From a virus: a stretch of 64,000 bases of DNA. The stretch's first letter is position 1, and each line of letters starts with the position of its first letter. Below are positions 24,461 through 43,736 of this stretch, in pieces. The notes beneath the pieces were generated by a model. It was not told the origin of the DNA and searched no databases. It saw nothing but the letters and a program-made list of their open reading frames with translations. Both the position numbers and the translations under genes were made by a program. The stretch spans positions 32,001 through 96,000 of IMG/VR virus record IMGVR_UViG_3300045988_125846. One strand, 5' to 3'.

Positions 24461-25087
24461 CTACATTCGATTCATCACATCATAAAACCGAATTAAATAC
24501 TCATATACATTTCTAGGAACTAACTCTTTTACTTTTTCAAATTCACCTTTCTCACATAAATCTCTAACCAAACTTGAAGAAGTATGATTTTCTGGTATCT
24601 GAATTTCTGTGAAATGTTCTTTGTATTCCATAAGATTTGCTTCTCTCAAAGCATTCTCAAGGTTCTGACCTTCTCTCACACATGCTACAAAATTATATTC
24701 CTCAACAAACGGTTTCCAATTATACCAAGTTGTAAGTGTTTCAATATTATCCATTCCTAAACAAATATAGTATTCGTTGAAGATATAATCTTTTTCATTC
24801 ATATCTCTTATCTGAGTAATAGTATTGTATGTCCTCTGTGGAAAGAAGCTGGTTGTTTCAACTTCGGATGCCCACATATTATTTTCATCACAATTTGGCA
24901 TTGAATTAATCAGCGATACTCGACAATATCCAGGTATTAAAGTCTTTTTCTTCGCAACATATGTATCATGTGCAGGAATAAACAATATAGCATCGGCATT
25001 AACCGCTTTTTTAGCAGTCAATGCCATATCAACATGAGCGTTTGTAATCGGATTAAAACTTCCTGGTATAAGTAAAATTTTATTCAT
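24461..25087 (-). CDS. nadD: nicotinate/nicotinamide mononucleotide adenylyltransferase
   Basis: IPGSFNPITNAH (GxFxPxHxGH-type motif) and C-terminal TSSSLVRD (ISSTxIR-type). Overlaps the pncB stop by 8 nt. Confidence 0.7.
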   Translation of the reverse strand: MNKILLIPGSFNPITNAHVDMALTAKKAVNADAILFIPAHDTYVAKKKTLIPGYCRVSLINSMPNCDENNMWASEVETTSFFPQRTYNTITQIRDMNEKDYIFNEYYICLGMDNIETLTTWYNWKPFVEEYNFVACVREGQNLENALREANLMEYKEHFTEIQIPENHTSSSLVRDLCEKGEFEKVKELVPRNVYEYLIRFYDVMNRM

Positions 25088-26288
25088 GATCCATTCTCCA
25101 ATTAATACATCTCTTTAGATAATCAACATAATCAGGGTTTTTACACATGCCTTTTCCTTCTACGTCAGAAACTTTTGCAACATCCATACCGTTACATTTA
25201 GTAGTTTTCATTACAATATTTAAAGCAGGAACATCTGTATCATTACTCAAATAAGTACCAATTCCAAATGCAACATTTACTCTATCATGGAAGTGTCTGA
25301 ATAACTTATCAGCTCTTTCAAAATCAAGACTGTCACTAAACAGAAGTGTCTTTGTCTTAGGATTTATACCAAGTGACTCATAATGATTAATCATCTTTTC
25401 ACCCCATTCAATCGGATCGCCACTATCATGTCTTACACCACTGAATAATGTTGCATATGTCAACTGAAAATCTTTCAAGAAACAATCAGTTGTAATTGTA
25501 TCTGTGAGCGCAATACCATTTAACACACCATACTCTCTAACCCATGCGTCTAGGGCATACCAGTTTGAATATGCTGGATTGTGCTTGTGATTGCCCTGAC
25601 CAGAACACATAATCCATTCATGAGCCATAGTTCCAACAGGCGTGAGATTATATTTCTTTGCGAGATATACATTAGATGTACCAACAAATTTAGATGGACT
25701 GTGTAATGTATCATTCAAATGTGAAAACTTCTTAACAGCTAACTCCTGTGCTTCAGCAGAAAGTCTTCTTCTAAGACCAAATTCAGAAAATGTACCAGCA
25801 TACCAATGACCGCTTCTGAGATTTTCATACTTTTCATCTAATCTCTTTTTGAAACTATTAAGCAATTCTTCATAGTTATATGCCATTCTGAAATATACTT
25901 CGTTTACAATCGCAAGTGTAGGAATCTCATACATAGATGTATTAAGCCATGTACCAAATGTTTCGATAGAAAGACCGCAATCTGAATCTGTTGTAATCTC
26001 AAAATCCTCATATCTTGGCTGCCACAATCTCAGAAAATCAACATACGAACCCTTCATCCATTTGATATTATCAATATAAGTAAGTTCATCTTCTGTGAAT
26101 CTCAAACCACAATATAATTTAATCTGTCTGCGAATCTCTTCTACCATTTCTGGTGTAAAATGAACATCCTTATTACGACACTTAAAACTCCAAGTGGTTT
26201 TATAATCACTAAACTGATGATAAATAGCCTGTCCCATTGACAATTTGTAGGCATCTGTCTCAAATAAACTTGTAATAATCTGCTCCAT
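25080..26288 (-). CDS. pncB: nicotinate phosphoribosyltransferase
   Basis: Collinear with E. coli PncB: TDAYKLSMGQA, GTSNVYLAKKYNLTPVGTMAHEW, GIALTDTITTD, GVRHDSGDPIEWGEK, FGIGT and LNIVMKTTKCNG. Start trimmed to Met32 of the track ORF. Confidence 0.85.
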   Translation of the reverse strand: MEQIITSLFETDAYKLSMGQAIYHQFSDYKTTWSFKCRNKDVHFTPEMVEEIRRQIKLYCGLRFTEDELTYIDNIKWMKGSYVDFLRLWQPRYEDFEITTDSDCGLSIETFGTWLNTSMYEIPTLAIVNEVYFRMAYNYEELLNSFKKRLDEKYENLRSGHWYAGTFSEFGLRRRLSAEAQELAVKKFSHLNDTLHSPSKFVGTSNVYLAKKYNLTPVGTMAHEWIMCSGQGNHKHNPAYSNWYALDAWVREYGVLNGIALTDTITTDCFLKDFQLTYATLFSGVRHDSGDPIEWGEKMINHYESLGINPKTKTLLFSDSLDFERADKLFRHFHDRVNVAFGIGTYLSNDTDVPALNIVMKTTKCNGMDVAKVSDVEGKGMCKNPDYVDYLKRCINWRMDHE

Positions 26289-26289
26289 A

Positions 26290-26844
26290 TTATTTACCTT
26301 CTTTCTTGATTTGATTAAATATTGTTCTAATATCATATTCTCTGTTTTCGTACTCATAAAACAGATTAATATACTTATCAATAAAAGCTATATCATTTGG
26401 ATGCATTGCAATTGGTTTACTTTTCTTAGATTTCCACCATTTTAATTCCTTCTCAAAATTAAATGATTTACCATGATATGCTCTACCTGCTCCAAGATAA
26501 TCACAAAGCATTTCTTTTTTATACTTCATTGGCATTTCAATAGGATTTCCACCATTATCAAAATTGTCTTCCCAATACTCGTAGTGGTGCTTGTTTCTTC
26601 CTTTATGGTGCATCCAAGCAGCCGACCAACCATTCTCTTTCTTACAAGCGTCTATTGGACTTGAAGTACCTTGATAATACTTAACACTCTCCCAAAATTC
26701 CGTTGGAGAAAATTTAGATAAATCATGTACTAACCCTTGAAATGGAATTCCCACTTTACAGCAATAGTAGAACACCCAACGTTTATGAGTACAGACTTTC
26801 TTAAAATGTCTAAAAGTATTAATGATATAATTCTTATACTTCAT
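26290..26844 (-). CDS. hypothetical His-rich protein embedded in the NAD operon (possible HD-type phosphohydrolase, DUF5662-like)
   Basis: LVHDLSKF and WMHHKGRNKHHYEYW. Overlaps the pncA 3' end by 11 nt and ends 1 nt before the pncB start. The family call is tentative. Confidence 0.35.
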   Translation of the reverse strand: MKYKNYIINTFRHFKKVCTHKRWVFYYCCKVGIPFQGLVHDLSKFSPTEFWESVKYYQGTSSPIDACKKENGWSAAWMHHKGRNKHHYEYWEDNFDNGGNPIEMPMKYKKEMLCDYLGAGRAYHGKSFNFEKELKWWKSKKSKPIAMHPNDIAFIDKYINLFYEYENREYDIRTIFNQIKKEGK

Positions 26845-28365: not shown

Positions 28366-29757
28366 TTAATATTTAATCCAACCATCTGTAATACCAGTCA
28401 TCCAATAAATAAGATCTTCTCTATCATTTTTTAATCTTCCATCTATTACACGAGTTAAGATTTCATTGAGCCAGTAGCCAACTTCTTTTCCACTTTTAAT
28501 GAGCATTGTATCCATTACATCCTTACCATTAACTGCTAAATCCTTTAGAGAAAAACATTCATCATCCTGTAAGACTTCTTCTAAAATATATCCAATGTTA
28601 TCAATCTTCTGTAATCTTGTTTCCTGATTAATGTCTGCTTGTGCTTTAATATCAGCTCTACGAACATTTAATAACCTTCTGAACTGTTCTTCTCCAATTT
28701 TATTAAGCCATCTCTTGACATATTTCTTTCCAACCTCAAAAGTAGCATCATGATAATAAACAAGCTGTACAACCTTTTCTCTTGTATCATTATCAAAACG
28801 AAGTCTTTTCATAATTGTATCAGTCATATCAGCACTGACTTTTCCATGTCCTTTGAAATGTCTGATACCATCTTCTCCATCCTGATAACAATGTGGTTTT
28901 CCTATGTCATGAAAGAATACCGCTAATGATGTAATTAAATCTATTGGATTTAAGTCTTCTTCACAATCACAAGAATATGCTTCTACAGCATGAATTGTAT
29001 GTTCCCATACATCATAGATGTGATATGGATTATTCTGTGGAAAATCAAACATATCTTTTATTTCAGGAATAAACAATGATAATACATCGCTATATAAAAC
29101 CATCTGTACACAGAAATCACTTGATGCAGCGATTTTACAGAACTCACTATTTATCCTTTCAACTGATATATTCTTCAAATTCTGATACACCTTATGTAAA
29201 ACATAATCTGTATTTGGTTCAAGAACAAAATCCAACTGAGAAGCAAATCTGATAGCTCGTAAAATTCTCAAAGCATCTTCATCGAATCTATCTTCTGGTT
29301 TACCAACACACTGAATTTTGTGATACTTTATATCTTCCATGCCATTAAACGGATCTACAAGACCAACTTCATCATTGTATGCCATCGCATTGATTGTAAA
29401 ATCTCTACGCTTTAAATCTTCTTCAAGACTTTTTGTAAAAGTTACTTTATCTGGTCTACGGCTATCAGAATAATTACCATCAATTCTGTATGTTGTTACT
29501 TCATATGGTTCTCCATCAATGACAATCGTTATTGTTCCATGCTGTAAGCCAGTTTCAATAATTCTTTTATCCTTGAATACTTCCATCATCTCATCAGGTG
29601 TAGCAGATGTTGTAATGTCATAATCGTGAATTGGTCTTTCCAGAATGCTATCACGAACACAGCCACCAACTAAATATGCTTCGTATCCTTTATCTTGGAG
29701 TATATGAATAATCTCATTTGCACCAGATGGGATTTTAATTTTTAATTTAGATTTCAC
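28366..29757 (-). CDS. cca: CCA-adding enzyme (tRNA nucleotidyltransferase) with HD domain
   Basis: GGCVRDSILERPIHDYDITT, RRDFTINAMA, and HD motif FFHDIGKP. Confidence 0.8.
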   Translation of the reverse strand: MKSKLKIKIPSGANEIIHILQDKGYEAYLVGGCVRDSILERPIHDYDITTSATPDEMMEVFKDKRIIETGLQHGTITIVIDGEPYEVTTYRIDGNYSDSRRPDKVTFTKSLEEDLKRRDFTINAMAYNDEVGLVDPFNGMEDIKYHKIQCVGKPEDRFDEDALRILRAIRFASQLDFVLEPNTDYVLHKVYQNLKNISVERINSEFCKIAASSDFCVQMVLYSDVLSLFIPEIKDMFDFPQNNPYHIYDVWEHTIHAVEAYSCDCEEDLNPIDLITSLAVFFHDIGKPHCYQDGEDGIRHFKGHGKVSADMTDTIMKRLRFDNDTREKVVQLVYYHDATFEVGKKYVKRWLNKIGEEQFRRLLNVRRADIKAQADINQETRLQKIDNIGYILEEVLQDDECFSLKDLAVNGKDVMDTMLIKSGKEVGYWLNEILTRVIDGRLKNDREDLIYWMTGITDGWIKY

Positions 29758-30775
29758 CCTTAACCACCCTTTCGTTTACACTTGCAACAAACTCATTGAT
29801 TTTCTTGTAGTCTGGATTTTCAGGAAGATTAGTATTTTTCTTTGCATAATCCAATCTCTTCTCATAGTCATTTACCATTTCAAAGAACTCAGGAATTGGC
29901 TGATCGTTGCTGTCGAGATATTTACCATTACGAATATCCATAAGCAAATCATGTTCATCTTCTCTATATGTGATTATTCTCTCTTTCTCAAGAATATCTA
30001 AACACATCATATAAAGTCGAATAAGATGCATTGAATGTTTTGCAATTTTACCATGCTCAATAGCTTTCTCATTTCTTTTACCAATCTTTCCATACTGACG
30101 AACTGTGTTCTGAAGTTCATTCCACATAGAGCAATAATCTCTTAATGGATAATGAGTAAGGTTTACATCCATAAAAATCTCTGTGTCATATCCTTCCTGC
30201 ACAGCCTTATCAATATATAACTTCATTGAATCATCTGAATATGGTGTGTATTTCTTTGTAAAATCTGTCTGCATAAATTCAAGCGTCTTTAAAATGTGTT
30301 TCTCCAATTCTGACTGAGACATCTGATGTGCTGCTTTCTGGTTCAATCTATAGAGCTGCTGATTCGCATATCCTCCAAACGAATGACAAGCTCTCTTTGA
30401 TAAAAATAAATGTGCATTATCAATTAGTTCCTGACCAATAGATGATACATAAAAGTAATGTTCAGGTTTATTTCCAAGCATTTCTATTGTATTAGGATTC
30501 GTATTACTTAACAATGCTACTAACTTATTAAAGGCATAAATAGTTGTGTCTGTCTCATTGTTTACAAACTGCTCAAAATTCTCATTTGTGAGGATCTGCA
30601 TCTTGCTATTCAAAGCACAACCACGAATATCTAAATCACTGCCTTCATTGTTTGTTCCATATGCATGACTTCCACCAAGAGTTAAGATAATGATATTGTT
30701 ACCTAAATTCTTATCTGTTCTCAGGAAGTCATACTCTTTTGATTTTAATTTGTCCTTAATCTGTTCAATTGTCAT
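29747..30775 (-). CDS. Pol-beta-fold nucleotidyltransferase, RlaP-like (RNA-repair-associated)
   Basis: LGGSHAYGTNNEGSDLDIRG nucleotidyltransferase motif; about 340 aa. The 3' end overlaps the cca start by 11 nt. Start trimmed to the ATG after TTGGAGG. Confidence 0.55.
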   Translation of the reverse strand: MTIEQIKDKLKSKEYDFLRTDKNLGNNIIILTLGGSHAYGTNNEGSDLDIRGCALNSKMQILTNENFEQFVNNETDTTIYAFNKLVALLSNTNPNTIEMLGNKPEHYFYVSSIGQELIDNAHLFLSKRACHSFGGYANQQLYRLNQKAAHQMSQSELEKHILKTLEFMQTDFTKKYTPYSDDSMKLYIDKAVQEGYDTEIFMDVNLTHYPLRDYCSMWNELQNTVRQYGKIGKRNEKAIEHGKIAKHSMHLIRLYMMCLDILEKERIITYREDEHDLLMDIRNGKYLDSNDQPIPEFFEMVNDYEKRLDYAKKNTNLPENPDYKKINEFVASVNERVVKGEI

Positions 30776-30833
30776 TGTCTTAACCTCCAAAATTTCGCAA
30801 GAAATGTGCGTTTCTTTCTAATGTAAAATATAT

Positions 30834-30877
30834 ACCATATATAGTATATATTGTTTATTTTTAATACTATATACGGT
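30834..30877. promoter_or_regulatory. pair of degenerate ACTATATATAGT-type boxes forming an 18-bp inverted repeat
   Basis: ACCATATATAGT at 30834-30845 and ACTATATACGGT at 30866-30877. The arms ATATACCATATATAGTAT and ATACTATATACGGTATAT match at 17 of 18 positions. Confidence 0.45.
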
Positions 30878-30921
30878 ATATTGATAGAGTCAGTAGGCTA
30901 TGACACCTACTAACTCTTGAA

Positions 30922-31014
30922 TTATTTATTCTTCTTACGTTTTCCTACAATAAAACCTGCTCCAAAGCATACACCGAGACAGATTACGAAAACTCCAATG
31001 TTTAATACAATCAT
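30922..31014 (-). CDS. small hydrophobic peptide (30 aa)
   Basis: Own translation MIVLNIGVFVICLGVCFGAGFIVGKRKKNK. The ATG shares one nucleotide with the upstream stop (TAATG). Confidence 0.35.
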   Translation of the reverse strand: MIVLNIGVFVICLGVCFGAGFIVGKRKKNK

Positions 31015-31763
31015 TACTTATTACCTCTCTGTCTCTTCATATCATCAAGGATCTGGCGAGCATTGCGCTCTCTTTCAGAATTAGCAAGTCTTCTCTCATT
31101 AGCCTGTGCGCTAGAATCATATGCAATTCTACTTCCTTCTGCACGTTCTCTTGTCTTTCTTGCTCCTTCACGAACTCTTTCAAGCATTCTATCACTCTCA
31201 TTATTTGTATTAAGATTATCCATACTCTGATGAAGTTCGATAATCTGACTATCGGCTTCCATCTGAAAAAGAACCTGTTCCTTTTCCTCTTTAAGTTTCT
31301 GCAATTCTTCGGCTGCCTGATCACGAATGTCTTTTTGGTGAGCCTGTGCTTCTCTCATCTCTTCAATTGTATCTTTTAGTACATTAATCTTATTCTCCAA
31401 AGTAGACTTCTTCATTGCATACTGCATTGCTTCATTTTCTTTGTTTTCATCAAGACAAGCGTTAATCTGCTGTGTAACACGCATAATATCTTTATTTGCC
31501 TGATATAAGTCTTTTTCTGCTGTATCACGCTTTCCTGAAATTTCAGCATATGTAGCAGATGCCTTGTTATAAAAATCTTCCTTTTCTCTAATGGCTGCGT
31601 TATAATAATCTCTAGCACCTTCTGGTGTCTGTGCATCCTGACGCATTACTTCATCTGTTCTTCCTTTAAACTTTACTCGAAGCTGTTTACCAAAAGGAGT
31701 AAAGAAAAGAATCAGTGCAATTAATACAATCGCCACAATTATAATAAACATAAAATTTGTCAT
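31014..31763 (-). CDS. membrane-anchored coiled-coil protein, PspA/IM30- or TelA-like
   Basis: N-terminal TM helix FMFIIIVAIVLIALILFF, then about 220 aa of heptad-like Glu/Lys/Arg/Gln-rich sequence. The family call is tentative. Confidence 0.4.
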   Translation of the reverse strand: MTNFMFIIIVAIVLIALILFFTPFGKQLRVKFKGRTDEVMRQDAQTPEGARDYYNAAIREKEDFYNKASATYAEISGKRDTAEKDLYQANKDIMRVTQQINACLDENKENEAMQYAMKKSTLENKINVLKDTIEEMREAQAHQKDIRDQAAEELQKLKEEKEQVLFQMEADSQIIELHQSMDNLNTNNESDRMLERVREGARKTRERAEGSRIAYDSSAQANERRLANSERERNARQILDDMKRQRGNK

Positions 31764-31772
31764 ACAATCCTC

Positions 31773-32354
31773 CTACTCTGCATCAATTCCATACTGATTA
31801 CATAATGCCTTTAATCCACCATTATAGCCACTTCCTACAGCCTTAAACTTCCATTCGCCATTATGTTTATATATTTCAGATACGACTAACGCAGTCTCGG
31901 TAGAGAAGTCTTCACTTAAATCAAAACGAATAAGCTCCTCGCCTGTCTCTTCGTCTACTACACGCACATATGCATTTCCAACCATACCGAAGTTCTGAAG
32001 TCTACTCTCAGCATCATAAATTGTGACCGTCACAGCAAGAGTCTCATAGTCTGATGGGATTTTATCAAGTTTAATCTTAATAACCTCATCATCTCCATCT
32101 CCCTCACCTGTACGGTTATCTCCCATATGCTTTACACTTTTTGAACTATGTTCAAGATTACCATAGAAAATAAAATCCTCATCCTTGCCAACCTTGCCAT
32201 TCTCTTTTGTCATAAACACAGAGGCATCGAGATCAAAATCTGCTTCTCCGTCATAATGATTAATATCCCATCCAAGTCCAACAAGAATGTTTTTTAATGA
32301 CGGTCTACCCTTTGTTAAATCTACTCTCTGTCCTTTACTTAACGAAACTGACAT
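31773..32354 (-). CDS. terD: TerD-domain protein
   Basis: LSKGQRVDL, GLGWD, DFDLDASVF, GDNRTGEGDGDDE, FGMVGNAYVRV and GEWKFKAVGSGY. Confidence 0.85.
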   Translation of the reverse strand: MSVSLSKGQRVDLTKGRPSLKNILVGLGWDINHYDGEADFDLDASVFMTKENGKVGKDEDFIFYGNLEHSSKSVKHMGDNRTGEGDGDDEVIKIKLDKIPSDYETLAVTVTIYDAESRLQNFGMVGNAYVRVVDEETGEELIRFDLSEDFSTETALVVSEIYKHNGEWKFKAVGSGYNGGLKALCNQYGIDAE

Positions 32355-32366
32355 AATTAAATCCTC

Positions 32367-32942
32367 CTACTTGTATCTTCTTGTTAATTCGCTAACACTT
32401 GAATCATTTGTTCCCTGACCGATAGCGTTAAATTTCCACTCTCCGTCTTTCTTATAAACTTCTGCAAATACCATTGCTGTCTTGCCAGCATAATCATCTG
32501 AAAGATTGTATTTACAAATTTCCTTACCAGTTGACTCATCAACAAGTCTAATGTACGCATTCTTGATAAGTCCAAAATCCTGCTTTCTTGAAATACAATC
32601 ATAGATATTTACTACAAATACAATCTTCTCAACCTTATTTGTAATATTCGCAAGATCAACGGTAATCTGCTCATCATCACCGTCTCCATCTCCTGTGAGG
32701 TTGTCACCATGATGATACACACATCTGTCTTCCGCTGATCTGTCACCATAATAAACACATGTACGATACTTATCATCTTTTCCTAAAATAATTGCTGAAG
32801 CATCGCAATCAATGTTTGGCTTAGAACCAAATAATCCTTTCTTAGCAGCATCCCATCCAAGTCCTACCATAATCTTTGTAAGACCACCTGCTACTTCCTT
32901 AGATAAATTAATTTTCTGTCCTTTTACTAAATTTACTGACAT
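32367..32942 (-). CDS. terD: TerD-domain protein
   Basis: LVKGQKINL, GLGWD, DCDASA, GDNLTGDGDGDDE and GEWKFNAIGQG. Confidence 0.85.
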   Translation of the reverse strand: MSVNLVKGQKINLSKEVAGGLTKIMVGLGWDAAKKGLFGSKPNIDCDASAIILGKDDKYRTCVYYGDRSAEDRCVYHHGDNLTGDGDGDDEQITVDLANITNKVEKIVFVVNIYDCISRKQDFGLIKNAYIRLVDESTGKEICKYNLSDDYAGKTAMVFAEVYKKDGEWKFNAIGQGTNDSSVSELTRRYK

Positions 32943-32960
32943 ATATATTCTCCTTCCATT

Positions 32961-33539
32961 TTATAAATCAAGACCAAAATTTCTACCAATAGCAGCTAAA
33001 CCACCATTGTAACCTGAACCAACTGCATTAAACTTCCATTCACCGTTCTTACGATACAACTCACCTGCAATAACACCTGTCTCTAATGAGAAATCCTCAT
33101 TAAGTTCATATTTGAAAAGTTCCTCATTTGTATCAGCGTTGTATGCTCTAATGTACGAATTATCAACCATTCCGAAATTCTGTAAACGATTTTCTGCATC
33201 ATAAATTGTCGCTGAGAAGCTAATCTTTGTAATATTAGATGGAATCTTATTTAACTCAACAATCATTGTCTCGTCATCGCCATCACCTACACCTGTTCTA
33301 TTATCACCAGAATAAATCAATGCTCCGCTTGGATGCTGTGGCTGACCATAAAATACAAAATCCTGTTCGCCTGTTACCTTTCCTGAATCATCAGTAAAAA
33401 ATGCTGATACATCCAAATCGAAATCTGCATTACCATCGTATCTATTTGTATCCCATCCAAGACCAAATACGACTTTGTTTAAACCTGCATTGCCTTTTGT
33501 AAGGTCAATCTTCTGACCTTTAACTAAACTAATTGACAT
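32961..33539 (-). CDS. terD: TerD-domain protein
   Basis: Start trimmed to MSISLVKGQKIDL (SD AAGGAGG). GLGWD, DFDLDVSAF, GDNRTGVGDGDDE and GEWKFNAVGSGY. Confidence 0.85.
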   Translation of the reverse strand: MSISLVKGQKIDLTKGNAGLNKVVFGLGWDTNRYDGNADFDLDVSAFFTDDSGKVTGEQDFVFYGQPQHPSGALIYSGDNRTGVGDGDDETMIVELNKIPSNITKISFSATIYDAENRLQNFGMVDNSYIRAYNADTNEELFKYELNEDFSLETGVIAGELYRKNGEWKFNAVGSGYNGGLAAIGRNFGLDL

Positions 33540-33732
33540 ATTGTTTGTCCTCCTTATTCTTGGGAAGGCTGTCAACCTTCCCTTTTAATAATTTAAAAGA
33601 AATTGGGAATGTGAGTAACGTCAGAAAAATAAATGGAATAAAGCGTGTAATACATGCTACAACAACACTAATTGAAAAACATATAAGAGTAATAATCTCT
33701 ACTTTTTTATAACTTTTATCTCTCCTTATCAT
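33529..33732 (-). CDS. small membrane protein (67 aa, two predicted TM helices)
   Basis: Hydrophobic stretches IITLICFSISVVVACI and IPFIFLTLLTF. Lies between the ATPase and the terD genes. Confidence 0.45.
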   Translation of the reverse strand: MIRRDKSYKKVEIITLICFSISVVVACITRFIPFIFLTLLTFPISFKLLKGKVDSLPKNKEDKQYVN

Positions 33733-33748
33733 GTTCTCATCTCCTCAA

Positions 33749-36349
33749 TTACTTATTCTCTCTTTTCTTCTCAATAATCTTTCTAATAAGATCAATTGGA
33801 ATAACCATAAAGGCTAAAATTACAACTACTACCCAATGTTTGAAATCTAAAGCTGTGACCTTAATAAGATTTTCTGCAAAGTTGCAAAGAGCAAATGTCA
33901 TTGCAAAAATTCCGATTGCAATGGCTGAAAATAACTTATTCTTTCCAATGCCATTGAATAAATTAATATGCTCTGTACGAATATTAAATCCATTAAATAC
34001 TGCCATAAAGCATAACAATGCGAATCTCGCTGTCATAGCTTCTGTTTCAGATGCAAACATATTTGCAATTGGGCTAAATGTAATAATTCCATAGAGTACA
34101 ATAAATGCTACTGTACTAATCGCAATACGTTTCTTTGCTCCTCTAATGAATAAGCCAGAACCTTTCTTAATAGGTTTCTCTGTCATATACTCATCTTTTG
34201 GTGGTTCACCACCGAATGATAGTGAATTAAGGGAATCCATAATGATATTTACAATCAGAATCTGAACTGAAGCGAGTAATGCACCTGTTGCAATCATTGG
34301 ATAGATAACACTGAGAATCAGAAGTGAAATATTAATAGGTAACTGGAATTCAAGGAACATCATAATATTGTGCATAAATGTTCTTCCAAGTTCTACTGCC
34401 TTTACTACGCTTGCAAAATTATCATCTGTCAATACAATGTCTGAAGCTTCTTTTGCAACATCTGATCCACCTTGCATACCAAAACCAACATCAGCTCTCT
34501 TTAAAGCAGGACTATCATTTACTCCATCACCTGTCATTGCAACTGATTTTCCAATCTCTTGTGCTAATGTGACAAGTCTGAGTTTTGTGTTTGGTGAGCA
34601 TCTTGAAATAACTCTCAATCGAGGAATTATACTCTTTACTTCATCATCTGACATCGCTTCAAATTCATCATTTGTAAGTGCTAAATCTCCATCTTTGTAA
34701 ATTCCACACTCTGTAGCAACTGCAACTGCTGTCTCAATACAATCGCCTGTAATTTCAATAACTTGGATACCAGCCTTATGTGCTATTTTTACTGCACTCG
34801 GTACTTCATCTCTTACAGGATCTACAACACCGATAATTCCAAGGAATGTCATGTCATTTGGTATTTCATTCTCTACTAAATCACCATCTGCCATTGTAAC
34901 TGCAATACATCTCATCGCATTACTTGTCATCGCTGTAATTGCATTACTTAATGTATCATTGTCGTTATTCTCTACAATTTCACCACTTGAGTCCATTACT
35001 TTTGTACAATGCTCAATCAATTTCTCAGGTGCGCCCTTATAGTATGTAACTCCATCCTTTGTCGTAAAAGCTGAATACTTATTACTACTATTAAATACCT
35101 GCTTTAACTTAACTGGATATTTTTTCTGAATGTCAGCATGTGTTTCAGGATTTACAAGGCTAAGAACTGCTCTATCAATTGAATTACCACCTGTAATATT
35201 GTTTTCTGAATCAAATGTTGCACTATTATTTAAAGAAATGTTTGCCTCGATATTATTCCAAAGAACCGAATCCTTATTTACATCATTACCAAAGCCATCA
35301 ATAATCTTCTTTGGAGTCATAATACCTGTCGTAAGAGTACCTGTCTTATCAGTACAGATAATATCAACATATGCTAACTCTGGAATTTTACCAGGATTCT
35401 TAGCAAGAATATTGAATTTCTCCATTGTCTTTACATTCTGTTTTGTTACAAGTTTTACAATAAGAGGCAATCCTTCGGGAACAGCAGCTACAATAATTGT
35501 TAATGCTACTGAGAAGTTCTGTGCGATTTTCTGAATAATATTCAGAACGCCACCGCTAAAATATTCTCCAAATCCAACCTGTACAATTCCTGAAATTGTA
35601 AGCACCGCAAATGTAATAACGGCTGCGATTGTTCCCCACTTAGAAATGAAGTCGCTCAGATTATCAAGTGCAATATCAAGTGCTGTCTTTGGTGCTTCAA
35701 GTGTTTGCATTTTAACAAGCGTATCGCCATTTACTGTATTCACACCTACATCAGTAACAATCATTTTTCCTTCGCCTGACATTACTGTTGTGCCAGCAAA
35801 TAAGCAATTCTGATTCGTATAAGCATCTGTTGAAGTAGTTTTCTTATGAACGTATCCTTCAATTGGTGTTTTCTTACACTCTTTTGTTTCTCCATTAATA
35901 GCTGCATTGTTTACAGAAATCTTACCTTCAATGAGATATCCATCTGCAAAAATCTCTTGTCCCATTCCTACACAAACAAGATCACCAACTACCAATTCAT
36001 CCTTATTAATTGTTTGAACTTTGCCATCACGAATTACGTCACAATACCTGACTGATGTTTTGGCTCTCAACTCTGCTGCTGATTTTTGAACACCAAGTCC
36101 AGTCTTAACAGCAATACATGTTACAATTGCTAATACAACAAGAATCATAATTGGATCTGATAAATCCATTACTCCCATGACTCCAAGGAATAACTGCAAT
36201 ACTGCAATTGCAATAAGAATCATTGTGATTTTCTCACTTAATGCCTCCTTTGCGAAGTCATACCACTTGTCCAACTTTGGTTCAGGAAGCTTATTACTTC
36301 CATGAAGCTCTCTACTTTTGAGAACTTCTTTACTACTCAATCCATTCAT
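33749..36349 (-). CDS. P-type (P2, Ca2+-transporting type) cation ATPase
   Basis: Cation_ATPase_N-like LSSKEVLKSRELHGSNKL, phosphorylation site ICTDKTGTLT, and hinge MTGDGVNDSPALKRADVGFGM. 866 aa with multiple TM segments. Confidence 0.85.
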   Translation of the reverse strand: MNGLSSKEVLKSRELHGSNKLPEPKLDKWYDFAKEALSEKITMILIAIAVLQLFLGVMGVMDLSDPIMILVVLAIVTCIAVKTGLGVQKSAAELRAKTSVRYCDVIRDGKVQTINKDELVVGDLVCVGMGQEIFADGYLIEGKISVNNAAINGETKECKKTPIEGYVHKKTTSTDAYTNQNCLFAGTTVMSGEGKMIVTDVGVNTVNGDTLVKMQTLEAPKTALDIALDNLSDFISKWGTIAAVITFAVLTISGIVQVGFGEYFSGGVLNIIQKIAQNFSVALTIIVAAVPEGLPLIVKLVTKQNVKTMEKFNILAKNPGKIPELAYVDIICTDKTGTLTTGIMTPKKIIDGFGNDVNKDSVLWNNIEANISLNNSATFDSENNITGGNSIDRAVLSLVNPETHADIQKKYPVKLKQVFNSSNKYSAFTTKDGVTYYKGAPEKLIEHCTKVMDSSGEIVENNDNDTLSNAITAMTSNAMRCIAVTMADGDLVENEIPNDMTFLGIIGVVDPVRDEVPSAVKIAHKAGIQVIEITGDCIETAVAVATECGIYKDGDLALTNDEFEAMSDDEVKSIIPRLRVISRCSPNTKLRLVTLAQEIGKSVAMTGDGVNDSPALKRADVGFGMQGGSDVAKEASDIVLTDDNFASVVKAVELGRTFMHNIMMFLEFQLPINISLLILSVIYPMIATGALLASVQILIVNIIMDSLNSLSFGGEPPKDEYMTEKPIKKGSGLFIRGAKKRIAISTVAFIVLYGIITFSPIANMFASETEAMTARFALLCFMAVFNGFNIRTEHINLFNGIGKNKLFSAIAIGIFAMTFALCNFAENLIKVTALDFKHWVVVVILAFMVIPIDLIRKIIEKKRENK

Positions 36350-36436
36350 CTGTTTTACTCTCCTTTTCTATAATTTTTATATATGAATGTTAATTAGTTA
36401 CATATCTATATTCTCTTTTTAATTTGGGAATTTTAT

Positions 36437-36452
36437 TGAGCTGAATCGCTCA
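36437..36452 (-). promoter_or_regulatory. GATTCA-loop hairpin (TGAGC/GCTCA stem) upstream of the ATPase-TerD operon
   Basis: Seen in sequence; same loop and flanks as 27451-27466. Confidence 0.4.
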
Positions 36453-36478
36453 GAAATTTTTTACAATGAAACGAAGTT

Positions 36479-36979
36479 TTACTTTGATTTTTTATTTAAA
36501 ATTTTTATAGCTAACTCTTTTAATTCTTCTGTCAACCCATGCTTATATGTTGTTTTAATAAAGTGGTCAGTATTTAAAAACTCACACATATCTGAATCAT
36601 CATCTAATATAATAAAATTATCAACTGGATTCTTTGACAACCATTCTCTAATTTCATCCCCACGTTGAGTATCGCCACTCAAAGATGGAGTAATATCATA
36701 CACCTCTATATCATAATCAGATAATCTACTAATTAGTTTTGTGTACAATTTATTTCCAAAAATACTTTCTTTACCACTTCTATCACAACCAATTCGCCAA
36801 GAGGATGACACAACAATTTTTGCGTTTGTTTTGTCAATTATTTCTTTTAATAATTTTAGAGGTCTATCCTCCACTTCCGCATATAATATACATCCCGTAA
36901 TATTATTCTTTGCTCTATAAATCAGCAAGTCATCCTCAGAATTGAGTACACCATCTACATCTAAAAATATAACCTTCAT
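36479..36979 (-). CDS. HAD-superfamily phosphatase (the type found in RNA-repair 'Swiss army knife' proteins)
   Basis: VIFLDVDGVLN (DxDG motif I), VVSSSWR, and IILDDDSD. Confidence 0.55.
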   Translation of the reverse strand: MKVIFLDVDGVLNSEDDLLIYRAKNNITGCILYAEVEDRPLKLLKEIIDKTNAKIVVSSSWRIGCDRSGKESIFGNKLYTKLISRLSDYDIEVYDITPSLSGDTQRGDEIREWLSKNPVDNFIILDDDSDMCEFLNTDHFIKTTYKHGLTEELKELAIKILNKKSK

Positions 36980-37016: not shown

Positions 37017-37331
37017 TTATTTATCTACAACAACTATCTCTTTGCCACAATAAGGACAATATTTTAAATTTGCCATATTTTCAGGTATCCTCCAATATGG
37101 ATCATCAGCATCGTCATGTTCTTTCGGGCAAATCGTTCTATAATCGTATTTTATCCATTTACAAGTTTGTATTTCCTCGTATCTTCGGAGTACAACATTT
37201 CCTCCGTCAATAAATATTTCCATTGGCTCACCAATTGCGTCTGCTTTTCCAAACACCAGTCTTCTAATTTCCTTTGGAATTACTATTCTACCTAAGTCGT
37301 CAAATCTACGAATTGTTCCCATAATTTTCAT
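37017..37331 (-). CDS. AbrB/MazE/SpoVT-fold DNA-binding protein with C-terminal zinc ribbon
   Basis: IRRFDDLGRIVIPKEIRR at the N-terminus; CPKEHDD...CPYCGKE at the C-terminus. Confidence 0.6.
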   Translation of the reverse strand: MKIMGTIRRFDDLGRIVIPKEIRRLVFGKADAIGEPMEIFIDGGNVVLRRYEEIQTCKWIKYDYRTICPKEHDDADDPYWRIPENMANLKYCPYCGKEIVVVDK

Positions 37332-37597: not shown

Positions 37598-39805
37598 TTA
37601 CGCATTTGCTATAAAATTATCAAAGCTGCGTTTCATATATGTATAATTAACTTTCTGTGATGAACTAAAATCAGATTTATTTCTGTAATTCTCAATCCAT
37701 TTTTCAAAATCCTGATCCTTATCATTTTGACAAGCATATGCCATGAGTGCTACTAATGCCATTCCACACTCTTTATAAACTGGATCGTCAATCTTAACAC
37801 AATCTTCTACCATGTCTGTGTAAAGGTTTATATCTTCGTCTGTCACATTTGGATTTGCATTTTCTTGAACAAAGGAAAGAACACTTTCTTCCGTATTTTC
37901 TTCAGCACTTTCTTTCGTATTGTTATTCTCCAATTCTGTGTTATTTACTTCTCTTGTACCAATATGTAAAAATTCATTCATCAGTTTTATAAGTAAATCA
38001 ATTTTACCTGTAATAGTTGCCTTTTTCTTTGTCTGTTGGTCTTTAAAATCTGCCATAGATACACCATCAACTTCTTTATCTTTAAGTTCTGTATTATATG
38101 CTCTTAAGAAATCAATGAATCTTGAATCTTCAATATTATATGTAGTAAATTTATCAAATACTGCAATCCACATTGGCATTGTAGTTGGAGTAAGTAATGA
38201 CTTCAAGTCTTTATTGTCATCGCCTAATGCTAATTCCAATCTATTAAAATGTGAATTAAGTTTTAAGAACTGCTGTTCTGTTGCATTTTCATCAACATAT
38301 TTGTAAATTGTATCAAGTTTTGCTTTCCATGAATCACGGAAGAACATTAACATTATTGATTCTGCAACAACACGTTCCAACTTTCCCTTAATAACATTAT
38401 TATCTGTAAACTTCCCACAATTTTTAAAGAATGTGTTTTTCTGTGAAATATTTTTAATATATCCCGCTGTCTGTGCAGATACATTAAGAAAACCACCCTG
38501 TTCCTTATTCATACTCGCATGATTGTTATAATCACGAATATGATCTGCAATCTGCTCATCTGTACAATCAAAGAATTTTGTTACGTTTATATTGAAATTA
38601 TTGAATCGTTTCTTTAACTCATCAGGAAGATCTTTATAATATTTCCCTATAACATCAAATATTTTCATCTCATATTCTGGTAAGCCATCTTCATCAAGTA
38701 CACGATTTCCATTATCATCTAAGACATAATCTCTATACTGAATTAAATGTCTCTCTGCTCCTGCTGAACCAATCTTAATACGATTTTCCTTGAATGCCTC
38801 AGCATATGAAAGTCTCTGCAATCCGTCAATTAAATGAGAGATTGTCAATCCCTTTTTCTTCTGTTCACAAAGAATAATTTCTGGAATAGGAAGATTACTA
38901 AGAATACGACAAAAATATCTATTCGCTTCTTCTGTAGTCCACTGAAAAGGTTCACGTTGCAAGATGTAGTTGCAGTTCACGTCTCCATTTTTCTTATCCT
39001 GTAACAACGAATACATGCTATACTTGTCCGTCCTGTAATTTTCAGATTCGCTAATTTCAATAATTCTGTCTTCCATATTATTTACCTCCACATCATAATT
39101 CCCATCATTTTTATTCTTTGAAAATACTGAAAGTCCTTTATTTATCTTAATTGACTTCATAGCACTACTATATTCTCTGTCTGATATATTCAATTTTTGT
39201 TTTATATTATCAGCAGGAACATTCTCCATCCGCATCAGCAAAATATTTTTTTGTATCCTCGGCAAAGAATCAATAAAATTATCAACTTTTTCATCGGCAC
39301 TAAAATCGAACTCACTCTTGTCTTCTACGTTAAAGTCAGATGCAATTTTTTCTACTAAATCATTATCTTCTTCAGTAGGTGCATCAAATGAAGTATCTGG
39401 AATAATAACTGGTTTTCCTTTATCGTCATCTGTTACATTTCCATTTTTATCAACCTTTACTATCTTTCCATTTTTATCAGTTAATAGATTTTTTCTTTTA
39501 CATCTCTGATAGTTGTCTCTATACCAGTCAATAACAGATTTTTTAATATTATTAATAAGGTAAGTTTTAAAACTCGCACCTTGAGATGAATCAAAGTTGA
39601 TAACACTTTCCATCAGAACATTCATTGCATCATCGTACAATTCGTCATGTTCATGTGCTGGAATCCCATACCTGAAAAATGCATTGTAACTAATTTTCTT
39701 CAATTTTGACATATCATTTACACAGTATTCAGTAATCCATTCCAACTGTTGTGATGAAAGATTATTTAATTTTTCACGCAATATTTCGTCTTTCACTTCA
39801 TGCAC
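37598..39805 (-). CDS. fusion protein: sigma-70-family (regions 2 and 4) N-terminus plus a DUF262 (ParB/Srx-fold) domain
   Basis: Region-2-like YDDAMNVLMESVINFDSSQGASFKTYLINNIKKSVIDWYRD. Region-4-like LPRIQKNILLMRMENVPADNIKQKLNISDREY. DUF262-like QREPFQW ... LIDGLQRLSY. GTG start. Confidence 0.6.
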   Translation of the reverse strand: MHEVKDEILREKLNNLSSQQLEWITEYCVNDMSKLKKISYNAFFRYGIPAHEHDELYDDAMNVLMESVINFDSSQGASFKTYLINNIKKSVIDWYRDNYQRCKRKNLLTDKNGKIVKVDKNGNVTDDDKGKPVIIPDTSFDAPTEEDNDLVEKIASDFNVEDKSEFDFSADEKVDNFIDSLPRIQKNILLMRMENVPADNIKQKLNISDREYSSAMKSIKINKGLSVFSKNKNDGNYDVEVNNMEDRIIEISESENYRTDKYSMYSLLQDKKNGDVNCNYILQREPFQWTTEEANRYFCRILSNLPIPEIILCEQKKKGLTISHLIDGLQRLSYAEAFKENRIKIGSAGAERHLIQYRDYVLDDNGNRVLDEDGLPEYEMKIFDVIGKYYKDLPDELKKRFNNFNINVTKFFDCTDEQIADHIRDYNNHASMNKEQGGFLNVSAQTAGYIKNISQKNTFFKNCGKFTDNNVIKGKLERVVAESIMLMFFRDSWKAKLDTIYKYVDENATEQQFLKLNSHFNRLELALGDDNKDLKSLLTPTTMPMWIAVFDKFTTYNIEDSRFIDFLRAYNTELKDKEVDGVSMADFKDQQTKKKATITGKIDLLIKLMNEFLHIGTREVNNTELENNNTKESAEENTEESVLSFVQENANPNVTDEDINLYTDMVEDCVKIDDPVYKECGMALVALMAYACQNDKDQDFEKWIENYRNKSDFSSSQKVNYTYMKRSFDNFIANA

Positions 39806-40629: not shown

Positions 40630-40654
40630 CTCCTCTCTTTGTTTGATTTAGCAA

Positions 40655-40728
40655 TGGATCATCAGAGACTTGAACTCTGAGCCTTTCGGTTATGAGCCGA
40701 ATGCACTAACCAATTGTGCTAATGATCC
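40655..40728 (-). tRNA. tRNA-Met: tRNA-Met (anticodon CAT; elongator type, or Ile2 if lysidinylated), no encoded CCA
   Basis: Hand-folded cloverleaf: acceptor GGATCAT/ATGATCC, D stem GCAC/GTGC, anticodon stem TTCGG/CCGAA with loop CTCATAA, T arm CAGAG-TTCAAGT-CTCTG, discriminator A. Confidence 0.85.
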
Positions 40729-40760
40729 AAGTCGCTGACACTATCGCAAGTTTATCAGGA

Positions 40761-40813
40761 AGTTCTATAGTATCAGCTTGTAATCCGTTAGTGGATCAGG
40801 CTATGGTAGAACT
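40761..40813 (-). other. 53-nt structured spacer between the two tRNAs (7-bp terminal stem, 6-bp inner stem with loop ACTAAC)
   Basis: AGTTCTA...TAGAACT terminal pairing. The inner stem TGATCC/GGATTA contains a G-U pair only in the minus-strand sense. There are no D or T arms, so this is not a canonical tRNA. Confidence 0.3.
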
Positions 40814-40892
40814 ATAGCAACTACACATTTTGCTCTTACAATGATTAATTCTTGCGTTCTGCGATAGAACCCGGTCTGGAAGTATCGCATAG

Positions 40893-40964
40893 CAGGGCAT
40901 ATCAGATTCGAACTGACAAATTTCGCAGTCAAAGTGCGATGCCTTACCGCTTGGCGAATGCCCT
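40893..40964 (-). tRNA. tRNA-Gln: tRNA-Gln (anticodon TTG), no encoded CCA
   Basis: Hand-folded: acceptor AGGGCAT/ATGCCCT, anticodon stem TCGCA/TGCGA with loop CTTTGAC, T arm GTCAG-TTCGAAT-CTGAT, discriminator G. Confidence 0.8.
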
Positions 40965-42283: not shown

Positions 42284-42484
42284 TTACACAAACTTTACAA
42301 GATCAAATGGTTTAACTTCCATCACATTTGCTACAAGTTCTAATACTGCCAGATCTGGAACTGCACTTCCATTTTCCCATTTACTAATTGTACTTGGTGC
42401 AATATCAGCCATTTTCGCAAGTCCTCTTACTGTTATTCTTTTTTCGGTTCTGATTTTCTTTCCAATATATTCAACCATAATCAC
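42284..42484 (-). CDS. XRE-family helix-turn-helix regulator (66 aa)
   Basis: ITVRGLAKMADIAPSTISKWENG. The start overlaps the integrase stop (ATGA). Confidence 0.7.
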   Translation of the reverse strand: MIMVEYIGKKIRTEKRITVRGLAKMADIAPSTISKWENGSAVPDLAVLELVANVMEVKPFDLVKFV

Positions 42485-43461
42485 ATCTCCATCAATTTCT
42501 CTTTCATTCCCACTGCACCATTCGCATAGTTATTAACTGTTGTATTTACACTACTATGTCCAAGCTGTTGCTGCACGAATGCAAGATTTCCATTCTGATT
42601 CATTACACTGGCATAATAATGTCTCATCATATGTGGAGTAATACCATTTCCATAATTCTCAAATATCTGTTTGATATTTCTTTCTGTTGTACGTGTACCA
42701 TTTTTATTTACGAACACAGCTTCTTTGTCTACAATATTATTCAATGTATTTCTGTACTCTAGCCATTCTTTTATAGCTTTTAAAGCAGATCCGCTAAGAT
42801 ATACCGTTCTATTTTGCATTTCTCTGTACACACCTTTACCAAGAATAGTAATATATGGCATTTCTTCTTCTAAATGCAAATCAGATAAATCCAAGCCAGC
42901 AAGTTCAGACTCTCTTATTCCAGTCCCTCTTAAGACACGAAAAATAGCAATATTTCTATTTCTTACAGGAATATCCTTTTTCCACATTATCTTTTCTTCC
43001 ATATCATTAAGCTGTTTTTCTGTTGGAAGTTTTTTAGTTAAATTGTTTCCAGATGGAATTCCTTTATATGTTACATCTTTAAAGAATCCATCTTTAATTT
43101 CGGTTCCCTTCACTCTACTCATATAATCCCAAAAACTGCTTATAATATGTTTCCTGGTTTCCAATGTAGTTGGTGACATACCATTCTGTTCTTTAGTTTT
43201 CAAATATAATGTAATATCCTCTGCCATAATATCAGTAAAATCCGATGGCTCAATATCTGAAATATTTGTTTTATCAATAAGTTTCTCTTCAATAAACCAA
43301 TTGAGCAAATCTACAATAACTCCAAGATAATTCAATGCACCTGCTTTACTCTCTATTTTAACAGTGAAATATTTTCTCATATATATAGGAAGATTTAACT
43401 CATCTAACTTCCTATTGAGTTTTTCTGCGTTTTTATTTTGAACTTCAATTTTATAACACAT
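42481..43461 (-). CDS. int: tyrosine recombinase / phage integrase family
   Basis: LRGTGIRESELAGL, HMMRHYYAS and LGHSSVNTTVNNYA (R..HxxR..Y catalytic pattern). Start trimmed to the ATG after GGGAG. Confidence 0.8.
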   Translation of the reverse strand: MCYKIEVQNKNAEKLNRKLDELNLPIYMRKYFTVKIESKAGALNYLGVIVDLLNWFIEEKLIDKTNISDIEPSDFTDIMAEDITLYLKTKEQNGMSPTTLETRKHIISSFWDYMSRVKGTEIKDGFFKDVTYKGIPSGNNLTKKLPTEKQLNDMEEKIMWKKDIPVRNRNIAIFRVLRGTGIRESELAGLDLSDLHLEEEMPYITILGKGVYREMQNRTVYLSGSALKAIKEWLEYRNTLNNIVDKEAVFVNKNGTRTTERNIKQIFENYGNGITPHMMRHYYASVMNQNGNLAFVQQQLGHSSVNTTVNNYANGAVGMKEKLMEM

Positions 43462-43466
43462 AATTA

Positions 43467-43736
43467 TCACTCCCTTGTGTAATCTGCTATCGCTTTTGCA
43501 ATAGCTTTAGCTGCTCTTTTACTTTTTAATGATTTCTGAATCGATTCTGTATTCCAAAAGACATCACTAAACTCAGCTAACTCACCACCGCAATTCCAAT
43601 TCGGAATACTAAAGAATCCTCCATTTACATATTCTCCGAAAATCACACTATAATAATTTCCATTATACTCAACACCTATATGGTGAATATTTTCAACATA
43701 AGTATCACCATTATAACTGATTTTATAATTTTCCAT
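43467..43736 (-). CDS. hypothetical protein (89 aa)
   Basis: Start trimmed to the ATG after GGAAGGTGG. Confidence 0.45.
   Translation of the reverse strand: MENYKISYNGDTYVENIHHIGVEYNGNYYSVIFGEYVNGGFFSIPNWNCGGELAEFSDVFWNTESIQKSLKSKRAAKAIAKAIADYTRE

Follow-up and report, generated by a model that had tools for sequence, protein, structure and literature searches.

What would a bacteriophage gain from carrying a Ca2+ pump, several TerD proteins and a relative of phage shock protein A (PspA) side by side in one operon? The question is raised by a stretch of 64,000 nucleotides (nt) of viral DNA (IMG/VR record IMGVR_UViG_3300045988_125846, positions 32,001 to 96,000; the whole stretch is referred to here as the window), in which seven minus-strand open reading frames (ORFs) lie between 30922 and 36349 in the order P-type ATPase, TM67, TerD1, TerD2, TerD3, PspA-like protein and pep30. 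A preliminary description had read these seven co-directional genes as a phage-borne, Ter-like operon pairing a Ca2+ P-type ATPase with membrane-stress functions, and had listed in addition a small transmembrane protein, three TerD paralogs, a PspA/TelA-like protein and a hydrophobic peptide of 30 amino acids (aa). The layout, the phage setting, the pump, the TerD trio, the peptide and the pairing of a Ca2+-type pump with a membrane-stress protein have all held up under the analysis reported here, and the remaining points were confirmed in part or revised as set out below. We propose, with confidence evenly balanced between acceptance and doubt, that the operon is a self-contained module answering membrane injury and the Ca2+ influx that comes with it.

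The genes are tightly packed. The ATPase and TM67 are separated by 16 nt, TM67 and TerD1 overlap by 11 nt if TerD1 begins at the ATG at 33539 (by 47 nt from the listed TTG at 33575), and gaps of 18, 12 and 9 nt follow between TerD1 and TerD2, TerD2 and TerD3, and TerD3 and the PspA-like gene. The start of pep30 overlaps the stop codon of the PspA-like gene by a single nucleotide (TAATG), so that spacings run from +18 to -11 nt. A GGAG-type ribosome-binding site is present at six of the seven starts, pep30 having a weaker GAGAGG. In six of the seven genes the ratio of nonsynonymous to synonymous substitution rates (dN/dS) is 0.01-0.25, and these genes are under purifying selection.

The linkage of terD with a P-type ATPase gene is kept across viral sequences. 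Among the 83 loci in phage context with enough downstream sequence to be counted, TerD and a PspA-like gene come after the pump in all but one (82/83), over ATPase identities of 69-99%. Two architectures were found. Type A (57 loci, including the window) consists of the pump, three TerD genes, the PspA-like gene and pep30; type B (25 loci) consists of the pump, a von Willebrand factor A (vWA) gene, a single TerD gene, the PspA-like gene and pep30. The type B vWA protein carries the ‘vWA found in TerF C terminus’ domain (PF10138, E 2e-59), and the TerD and PspA-like proteins of this type are 33-40% identical to their type A counterparts. The Ter-like character proposed for the operon is thus borne out both by three TerD proteins with intact Ca2+ motifs and by sister operons with a true vWA-TerF-like gene inside them. 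Two loci, L032 and L044, are 96.5% identical at the nucleotide level over 10.5 kb ending at the pump stop codon, are unrelated across the TerD/PspA middle (three TerD and PspA against vWA-TerF, TerD and PspA) and are 97% identical again exactly from the pep30 start codon. In this pattern the central genes behave as a cassette that can be exchanged while the pump and pep30 on either side stay constant, and because one cassette has been swapped for the other, types A and B behave as interchangeable alleles of one function. As a separate observation, in one near-identical relative (L006, 10775 onward) the pump, TM67 and TerD1 are retained but no TerD2, TerD3, PspA-like gene or pep30 follows within 7 kb, apparently through a natural deletion.

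Table 1. Features of the operon and of the surrounding phage sequence (positions are those of the window).
Feature	Position	Strand	Length	Basis
Two adjacent strong stem-loops, probable terminator	30830..30917	minus		Inverted repeats and RNA fold
pep30, single-pass membrane micropeptide, last gene, constant 3' cassette frame	30922..31014	minus	30 aa	
PspA/IM30 (ESCRT-III superfamily)-like protein, membrane-anchored (predicted)	31014..31763	minus	249 aa	PF04012, phrog_33389, fold match
TerD3	31773..32354	minus	193 aa	PF02342, E 4e-83
TerD2, divergent paralog	32367..32942	minus	191 aa	PF02342, E 6e-68
TerD1 (from ATG at 33539; mechanical ORF to TTG at 33575)	32961..33539	minus	192 aa	PF02342, E 5e-75
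TM67, hydrophobic ORF, lineage-specific	33529..33732	minus	67 aa	GAGGAG ribosome-binding site
PMCA-type Ca2+-translocating P-type ATPase (by homology), first operon gene, constant 5' cassette frame	33749..36349	minus	866 aa	Pfam and TIGR01517
5' intergenic region with weak hairpin and motif	36350..36478	minus		
Tyrosine integrase	42481-43470			
ParB-like protein	58691-59629			

The pump contains the Pfam domains E1-E2_ATPase, Cation_ATPase_N, Cation_ATPase_C and Hydrolase and scores 512.0 bits against TIGR01517, the PMCA-type Ca2+-ATPase equivalog, a marginal pass of the cutoff of 507.05. Its best solved relatives are plant ACA8 (8qmp), human SPCA1 and Listeria LMCA1 (6zhf). In the alignment with ACA8 the catalytic motifs CTDKTGTLT and TGDGVNDSPAL and the A-domain NGET are intact and the ligands of Ca2+ site II are present, namely the Glu of AVPEGLPL in M4 and the Asn/Asp of VNIIMDSLN in M6. 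No acidic residue is seen at the M5 position which, by SERCA numbering, we take to belong to site I. The dN/dS of the gene is 0.04-0.14. Specificity for Ca2+ would be in keeping with these features.

TerD is a Ca2+-binding protein, as known from the structure of Klebsiella TerD. All three of the window TerD proteins contain a full-length TerD domain, with scores of 228-278 bits set against a gathering score of 25.3, and all three retain GDN(R/L)TG(x)GDGDDE and DxDxS, which we take, from the structural work on the Klebsiella protein, to be the Ca2+-binding motifs. The ATG at 33539 was chosen for TerD1 as it fits the MS(V/I)SL start of TerD2 and TerD3. TerD1 (dN/dS 0.01-0.06) carries GDNRTGVGDGDDE together with DFDLD, and TerD2 carries GDNLTGDGDGDDE and has as its counterpart the 202-aa third TerD of the chromosomal Ter cluster of Blautia (53% identity). 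TerD3 aligns end to end with Klebsiella TerD (2kxt, E 7e-74), GDNRTGEGDGDDE being identical in both.

The 249-aa protein encoded after the TerD array had been described as PspA/TelA-like, and of the two halves of this name only the first stands. TelA (PF05816) has no match in any operon protein at E 0.01, in a profile search that detects TelA in the Blautia cluster at E 1.6e-101, and the TelA identity was rejected. PspA_IM30 (PF04012) is matched at 27.7 bits (E 2.5e-6; gathering score 33.9) over profile positions 26-219 of 220. The protein belongs to PHROG 33389 (E 5e-31), and most of its homologues have a precomputed PF04012 match or are named ‘phage shock protein A’. An AlphaFold model (predicted local confidence, pLDDT, 82 overall and 95-97 over residues 60-160) shows a hydrophobic N-terminal helix followed by a long helical hairpin, and the top folds in the PDB are Vipp1 (6zvr) and PspA (4whe), with a probability of 1.0, E-values of 0.01-0.05 and a root mean square deviation of 2.3 A over 115 columns. 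Both PspA and Vipp1 stabilise membranes and are of the ESCRT-III type (PMC8281802). The likeness to PspA, Vipp1 (IM30) and LiaH thus lies in the predicted helical-hairpin fold and the weak PF04012 match. The amphipathic helix alpha0 of PspA is not seen in the phage protein; in its place is a fully hydrophobic helix at about residues 2-22 (Kyte-Doolittle hydropathy 3.3) which, in the model, looks like a transmembrane anchor. The partners also differ, there being no PspBC or LiaI beside the phage protein but TerD, the Ca2+ pump and the 30-aa peptide. Homologues in Bacillus phage G (gp247) and in MT835556 were considered as parallels and set aside, as neither has TerD beside it, that of phage G standing alone.

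The peptide pep30 (MIVLNIGVF...GKRKKNK) is a real and conserved gene present in both architectures. Its equivalent touches or overlaps the stop codon of the PspA-like gene in most loci of either type, it is under purifying selection (dN/dS 0.09-0.25) and a 30-aa gene is called at this position in L111-L113. Several P-type ATPases are regulated by micropeptides: SERCA by sarcolipin and phospholamban, MgtA by MgtR and MgtS, and the Kdp pump has KdpF. By analogy pep30 may be compared with these, as it is of about 30 aa, single-pass, with a basic tail, encoded in the same operon as the pump and retained through the cassette swap; however, it has no sequence relationship to any of them and is translationally coupled to the PspA-like gene rather than to the pump. 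The ‘small transmembrane protein’ of the preliminary description exists as an ORF, TM67, but its status as a gene is doubtful. It has no family match in profile searches and occurs in the closest clade only, other type A loci having no counterpart. In L026 and L061 it is cut short, and its dN/dS of about 0.85 (223 pairs) is near-neutral.

The palindrome pair noted earlier at 30834-30877 is real. It corresponds to an 18-nt inverted repeat (30830-30847 and 30864-30881, 94% complementary) that forms the first of two strong terminator-like hairpins, the second being at 30886-30917 with AUAUUUUACAUU directly after its stem. Together they fold with -44.1 kcal/mol (z = -8.75 against shuffles), and it is plausible that they form the terminator of the operon. 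At the other end, the hairpin at 36437-36452 which had been thought to head the operon does exist, but it is not a meaningful feature: its stem is of 5-6 bp without a U-tract on the operon strand, it has no second copy within the window, and terminator-like sites in the region (three observed, 2.3 expected) are at chance level. A scan for sigma-70 promoters found fewer sites than in shuffles and none within the 5' intergenic region, and no Rfam family, metal riboswitches included, was found in the operon region. About 50 nt upstream of the pump start, at 36397-36415, is the motif GAGAATATAGATATGTAAC, which is single in the window, with no clear repeat elsewhere in it, and which recurs 5' of the ATPase in L028, L087 and L047, whose flanks are otherwise unrelated. 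In a second group of loci (L033, L045, L059, L085 and L086) TTGTTATAGAT(A/G)TTATAAAACA is found after a hairpin. Both motifs may be phage promoters.

The setting of the operon is that of a phage. The window has a G+C content of 32%, a GC skew that is strongly negative along its whole length and nearly all of its genes on the minus strand, and on each side of the operon lie tens of kb of phage genes in which base composition and strand bias are unchanged. Neighbours of the operon match phage families of CCA-adding enzyme, RlaP, HAD_SAK_2, NAPRTase, NAD synthetase, PurZ-like enzyme, methyltransferases, integrase and ParB-like protein; tRNAs and many PHROG families are also present in the window, while structural genes lie outside the stretches covered. 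Contigs that encode a protein identical to one from the window extend beyond its left end with Thg1, YorF/SSB, Phage_SPbeta_YorH, RecJ and PolIII alpha, among which YorF and YorH are SPbeta markers, and one such contig is 551 kb long, so that the phage is present there as an integrated prophage. Since the window has an integrase and a ParB-like gene, and since relatives sit integrated in contigs of 0.5-1 Mb, the phage is temperate. It is a large SPbeta-like temperate phage of Lachnospiraceae, and its host is probably Coprococcus eutactus. By exact-sequence look-up, the operon proteins are identical to entries from C. eutactus, from ‘uncultured Eubacterium’ and from third-party ‘Caudoviricetes sp.’ records, and relatives of about 80% identity occur in the same phage context in contigs of Enterocloster bolteae and Faecalicatena, one TerD sequence from these being present in about 4,000 data blocks. 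At least 80 IMG/VR contigs, many of them of 160-250 kb, have the pump at 71-99% identity. Among GenBank phages there is no megablast match to the operon, and no cultured phage with the pump was found, the tblastn matches in the phage collection being unannotated or contaminated records and bacterial contigs.

Further evidence for a link between TerD and Ca2+ pumps came from the chromosomes of the host family, in which the operon genes clearly have their origin. Blautia wexlerae and Roseburia have a Ter cluster with the order MarR, PRTase_2/TRSP, StiP/PELOTA, C-C lyase, YceG, TelA, two to three TerD, P-type ATPase, HAD, AIM24 and TerD. It shares with the phage operon a TerD trio (two canonical and one divergent) adjoining a PMCA-like ATPase of about 870 aa; the phage operon differs in having no TelA, YceG, StiP, PRTase or lyase, in having its pump first rather than last, and in adding the PspA-like protein, with its putative transmembrane anchor, and pep30. 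In L116-L118 (B. wexlerae and Roseburia sp. BX1005) the PMCA-like ATPase was seen directly after the TerD array, followed by HAD, AIM24 and a further long TerD. To our knowledge this chromosomal neighbourhood of Ter genes and a P-type ATPase has no precedent in the Ter literature. The phage pump is only 34% identical to the pump of the Blautia and Roseburia Ter clusters and 70% identical to a stand-alone chromosomal pump of Ruminococcus beside ilvA and leuA, the PMCA-type model being the best for all three. Because the pump lineages differ, the linkage of TerD with a Ca2+ pump has probably, on these sequence comparisons, been formed at least twice, and we regard this probable double origin as the strongest argument for a functional link. 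Two records annotated as ‘UNVERIFIED: Bacteriophage sp.’ from human faecal virome (L001, MT840059.1; L002, MT836648.1), in which three TerD genes lie with a P-type ATPase, were rejected as phage examples: they are the B. wexlerae chromosomal Ter cluster, with a TelA 99% identical.

The preliminary description knew of no phage system of this composition. This holds for the fused operon but not for its parts, all of which have been seen in phages before. Ca2+-translocating P-type ATPases were first reported from phages in 2026, in the Jug (jumbo gut) phages, in 81 further huge phages and in four of 159-197 kb (PMC12880540). In the Jug phages a small uncharacterised gene lies upstream of the pump and is co-transcribed with it, and there are three terD genes, one adjoining a pspA-like gene, each region forming its own operon (PMC12880540). 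These are likewise gut phages with a host-derived Ca2+ P-type ATPase and several TerD proteins. They differ in their size (360-402 kb), in their Bacteroides hosts, in the separation of pump and terD into different operons and in the position of the small gene 5' of the pump, whereas in the SPbeta-like phage of Lachnospiraceae the pump, three TerD (or vWA and TerD), the PspA-like protein and pep30 form one tight operon. Neither the cassette swapping nor the link to chromosomal Ter clusters is described in that report, and the four smaller phages, which have Bacillota-like pumps, may include the present clade.

Ter operons themselves have been described in jumbo phages (Iyer et al., 2021; PMC7824862), where TerD, TerC, TerF and TelA occur with or without PRTase and HAD enzymes and a role in superinfection exclusion was proposed. 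In these systems (Acinetobacter phage ME3, Caulobacter jumbo phages and the Herelleviridae phages YungSlug and LysYB1) TerD is accompanied by a cation transporter in the membrane and by a scaffold that is either vWA-TerF-like or TelA; unlike the present operon they use TerC/DUF475 as the membrane component, and ME3 adds the biosynthetic PRTase and HAD enzymes. No P-type ATPase or PspA-like gene lies next to TerD in the stretches examined of the ME3 and Herelleviridae Ter regions. The ME3 region (L119, 200424-225014) was seen to contain vWA-TerF-like, DUF475/TerC, a small ORF, TerD, PRTase, HAD and PRTase genes, with an NAD synthetase and a macro-domain (Appr-1-p processing) gene a few kb away that echo the NAD-salvage neighbourhood of the window. 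Several apparent parallels were discarded: the PspA/IM30 protein of ME3 is encoded elsewhere in the genome, outside the 24 kb that surround the Ter genes, the 856-aa ‘ATPase domain protein’ beside TerD in Herelleviridae is not a P-type ATPase, and the 245-aa membrane protein near TerD in the same phages is TerC and not PspA.

With the canonical Ter loci (terZABCDEF and yceCDEFGH, the latter under envelope-stress sigma factors in B. subtilis) the operon shares multiple TerD proteins and, in the sister architecture, the vWA-TerF-like protein. Profile searches of the operon proteins for the canonical Ter set found TerD alone and no TerC, TelA, TerB, PRTase, HAD, StiP or lyase; HAD_SAK_2 and NAPRTase, which are encoded nearby, are members of RNA-repair and NAD families and not of the Ter biosynthetic families. 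In the full-text literature no account was found that unites pump, TerD and PspA in one unit; this search did not extend to the 2012 comparative-genomics survey of Ter or the Jug supplementary tables, so that a claim to priority for the Ter/pump neighbourhood would be provisional. The apparent novelties are the fused operon, its two swappable cassettes framed by pump and micropeptide, the substitution of PspA for TelA and the parallel linkage in host chromosomes.

Phage Ter modules thus follow a template of Ca2+-binding TerD, cation exporter and sub-membrane scaffold, and it is on the strength of this template that we read the operon as a module for membrane injury and Ca2+ influx. In such a module the P-type pump would export Ca2+ that leaks into the cytoplasm through a breached membrane, and the three soluble TerD proteins would bind the leaked Ca2+ as buffers or as sensors. 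The PspA/ESCRT-III-like protein, anchored by its own transmembrane helix, would polymerise to stabilise or seal the damaged bilayer, and pep30 would be a membrane partner of either the pump or the PspA-like protein. The whole could be regarded as a pared-down phage form of the Ter cluster of the host family, in which the Ca2+-ATPase would stand for a TerC transporter that has been replaced or reduced and the PspA-like scaffold for TelA/YceG. The benefit to the phage would be that the infected or lysogenised cell is kept energised and intact, the candidate threats being phage-inflicted lesions, pore-forming bacteriocins, bile or peptides, and superinfecting phages.

A number of points weigh against this proposal. 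The Ca2+ specificity of the pump rests on homology and its TIGR01517 score is barely over the cutoff; relatives score 487-516 bits and some of these fall just under it. Some PMCA/PMR1-like pumps also carry Mn2+. In type B, TerD has lost GDGDD from its Ca2+ motif. The Pfam match behind the PspA assignment falls short of the gathering score and the E-values of the fold search are weak, as would be expected for coiled coils. The clade is known from sequence and predicted structure, so that we infer the timing of its expression, as we do a contact of TerD with the pump or the PspA-like protein and any other coupling of the proteins, physical or functional. Finally, a selective benefit cannot be read from operon membership alone.

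A bolder version of the same idea, which we consider rather improbable, would make the operon a minimal bacterial counterpart of the Ca2+-triggered ESCRT-III repair of eukaryotes, with TerD, or in type B the copine-like vWA-TerF, sensing the Ca2+ let in by a lesion and driving the PspA-like protein to assemble at the wound, and a micropeptide-tuned pump resetting Ca2+. If this were true, it would supply the long-missing mechanism of Ter, such that resistance to phages, pore-forming colicins and tellurite would be consequences of Ca2+-signalled membrane repair, and it would mean that phages mobilise this repair mechanism.

The operon could serve to make the envelope of a lysogen or infected cell more robust in general, to exclude superinfecting phages, or to counter pore-forming effectors of abortive infection. 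Plasmid ter operons have historically been associated with phage inhibition and colicin resistance, and the operon could in the same way be a defence of the lysogen, a Ter-type ‘phage inhibition’ by the prophage that would keep the DNA of other phages out or make their infections abort and would give resistance to pore-forming bacteriocins, to the benefit of the lysogen and not of the lytic cycle. The temperate lifestyle, with an integrase and with relatives integrated in contigs of 0.5-1 Mb, makes this plausible when set beside those classical Ter phenotypes, and the operon is moron-like in having its own terminator and possibly its own promoter. The same role was proposed for the Ter operons of jumbo phages (Iyer et al., 2021; PMC7824862). 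Nevertheless no PADLOC model, TerY-P included, meaningfully matches the operon proteins, which give only coiled-coil noise to PbeC and JetC, and the TerY-P-type kinase and phosphatase, TerB, TerC and the nucleoside-biosynthesis module are absent from the operon. We regard exclusion as an unlikely explanation in its own right, and as a purpose it could go together with the membrane-injury mechanism, which it does not contradict.

Somewhat less likely again is that the operon acts during the lytic cycle, neutralising depolarising or perforating abortive-infection effectors by Ca2+ export and membrane patching and so letting the phage complete its cycle. This is plausible because of the flanking RNA-repair and NAD-salvage genes: the genome arm is rich in likely counter-defence functions, including RNA repair, NAD+ salvage (NAPRTase, NAD synthetase) and a PurZ-like enzyme. 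Such an argument would nevertheless be one of guilt by association, there is no known anti-defence protein of the same composition, and bacterial abortive-infection signalling has no established role for Ca2+. The genome context is compatible with both this explanation and superinfection exclusion.

It is improbable that the Ca2+-ATPase acts alone as an auxiliary metabolic gene, remodelling host Ca2+ for replication, with TerD and the PspA-like protein as unrelated stress neighbours. It is true that the Jug phages transcribe their ATPase, terD genes and terD-pspA pair from separate operons, and a remodelling of Ca2+ homeostasis has been proposed (PMC12880540). In the present clade, by contrast, genes of the operon lie 9-18 nt apart or overlap and the linkage holds in 82 of 83 loci across 69-99% ATPase identity, the cassette between ATPase and pep30 swaps as a unit, and an unrelated ATPase lineage is also joined to TerD arrays in chromosomes. 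The last alternative, that bacterial chromosome was joined to phage by misassembly, might draw on the host-family origin of the genes and on the two GenBank ‘Bacteriophage sp.’ records that proved to be B. wexlerae chromosome, but it is ruled out for practical purposes by phage genes of the same composition on both sides and by the finding of identical junctions in integrated prophages as well as in over 80 viral contigs, which are 90-250 kb long.

Several neighbouring genes in the window deserve mention alongside the operon. HAD_SAK_2 lies just upstream of it (36479-36979) and RlaP and a CCA-adding tRNA nucleotidyltransferase just downstream (28366-30790), with tRNA-Met and tRNA-Gln at 40654-40964; relatives add a T4-type RNA ligase, a KTI12/AAA_33 kinase and Thg1 to this set, which looks like a counter-measure to anticodon nucleases. 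NAD synthetase and NAPRTase (22846-23586 and 25080-26381) form an NAD+ salvage pair, represented in relatives by NAMPT and PRTase, that is possibly directed against NAD-depleting defences. A 292-aa gene at 5159-6037 had been assigned to the Ter network as a vWA gene. This assignment could not be upheld: the protein carries a MIDAS-like motif (DVTGSMG) and falls into phrog_2971, with no Pfam or PDB match, and the gene always adjoins that of a PurZ-like adenylosuccinate synthetase homologue (phrog_1211, 4050-5141) and not the operon. A role in base modification, and not in Ter, is possible for this pair. A 735-aa protein (37598-39805) with a Sigma70_r2 region and a GmrSD_N (DUF262) domain is hypervariable among near-identical relatives, at 29-58% identity, and is 100% identical in L014 only. 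Two genes upstream of the operon, a 104-aa protein (37017-37331) with an AbrB/MazE-like N-terminus (PHROG ‘antitoxin’) and a Cys-rich C-terminal half is found in few relatives only.

Pathogens, plasmids and phages commonly carry Ter genes, and how these work has been a puzzle for decades. The clade described here offers a compact natural ‘minimal set’ of TerD, a Ca2+ pump and an ESCRT-III-like protein in two interchangeable cassettes and, together with the parallel and probably independent chromosomal linkage in Lachnospiraceae, this makes the hypothesis that Ter handles Ca2+ influx and membrane injury directly testable. It extends the 2026 report of phage Ca2+-ATPases to temperate phages of Bacillota and gives the pump a functional context. 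The clade is very common in human-gut metagenomes, in prophages of abundant commensals such as Coprococcus and Enterocloster, and the fitness of lysogens in the gut may be affected by the operon.

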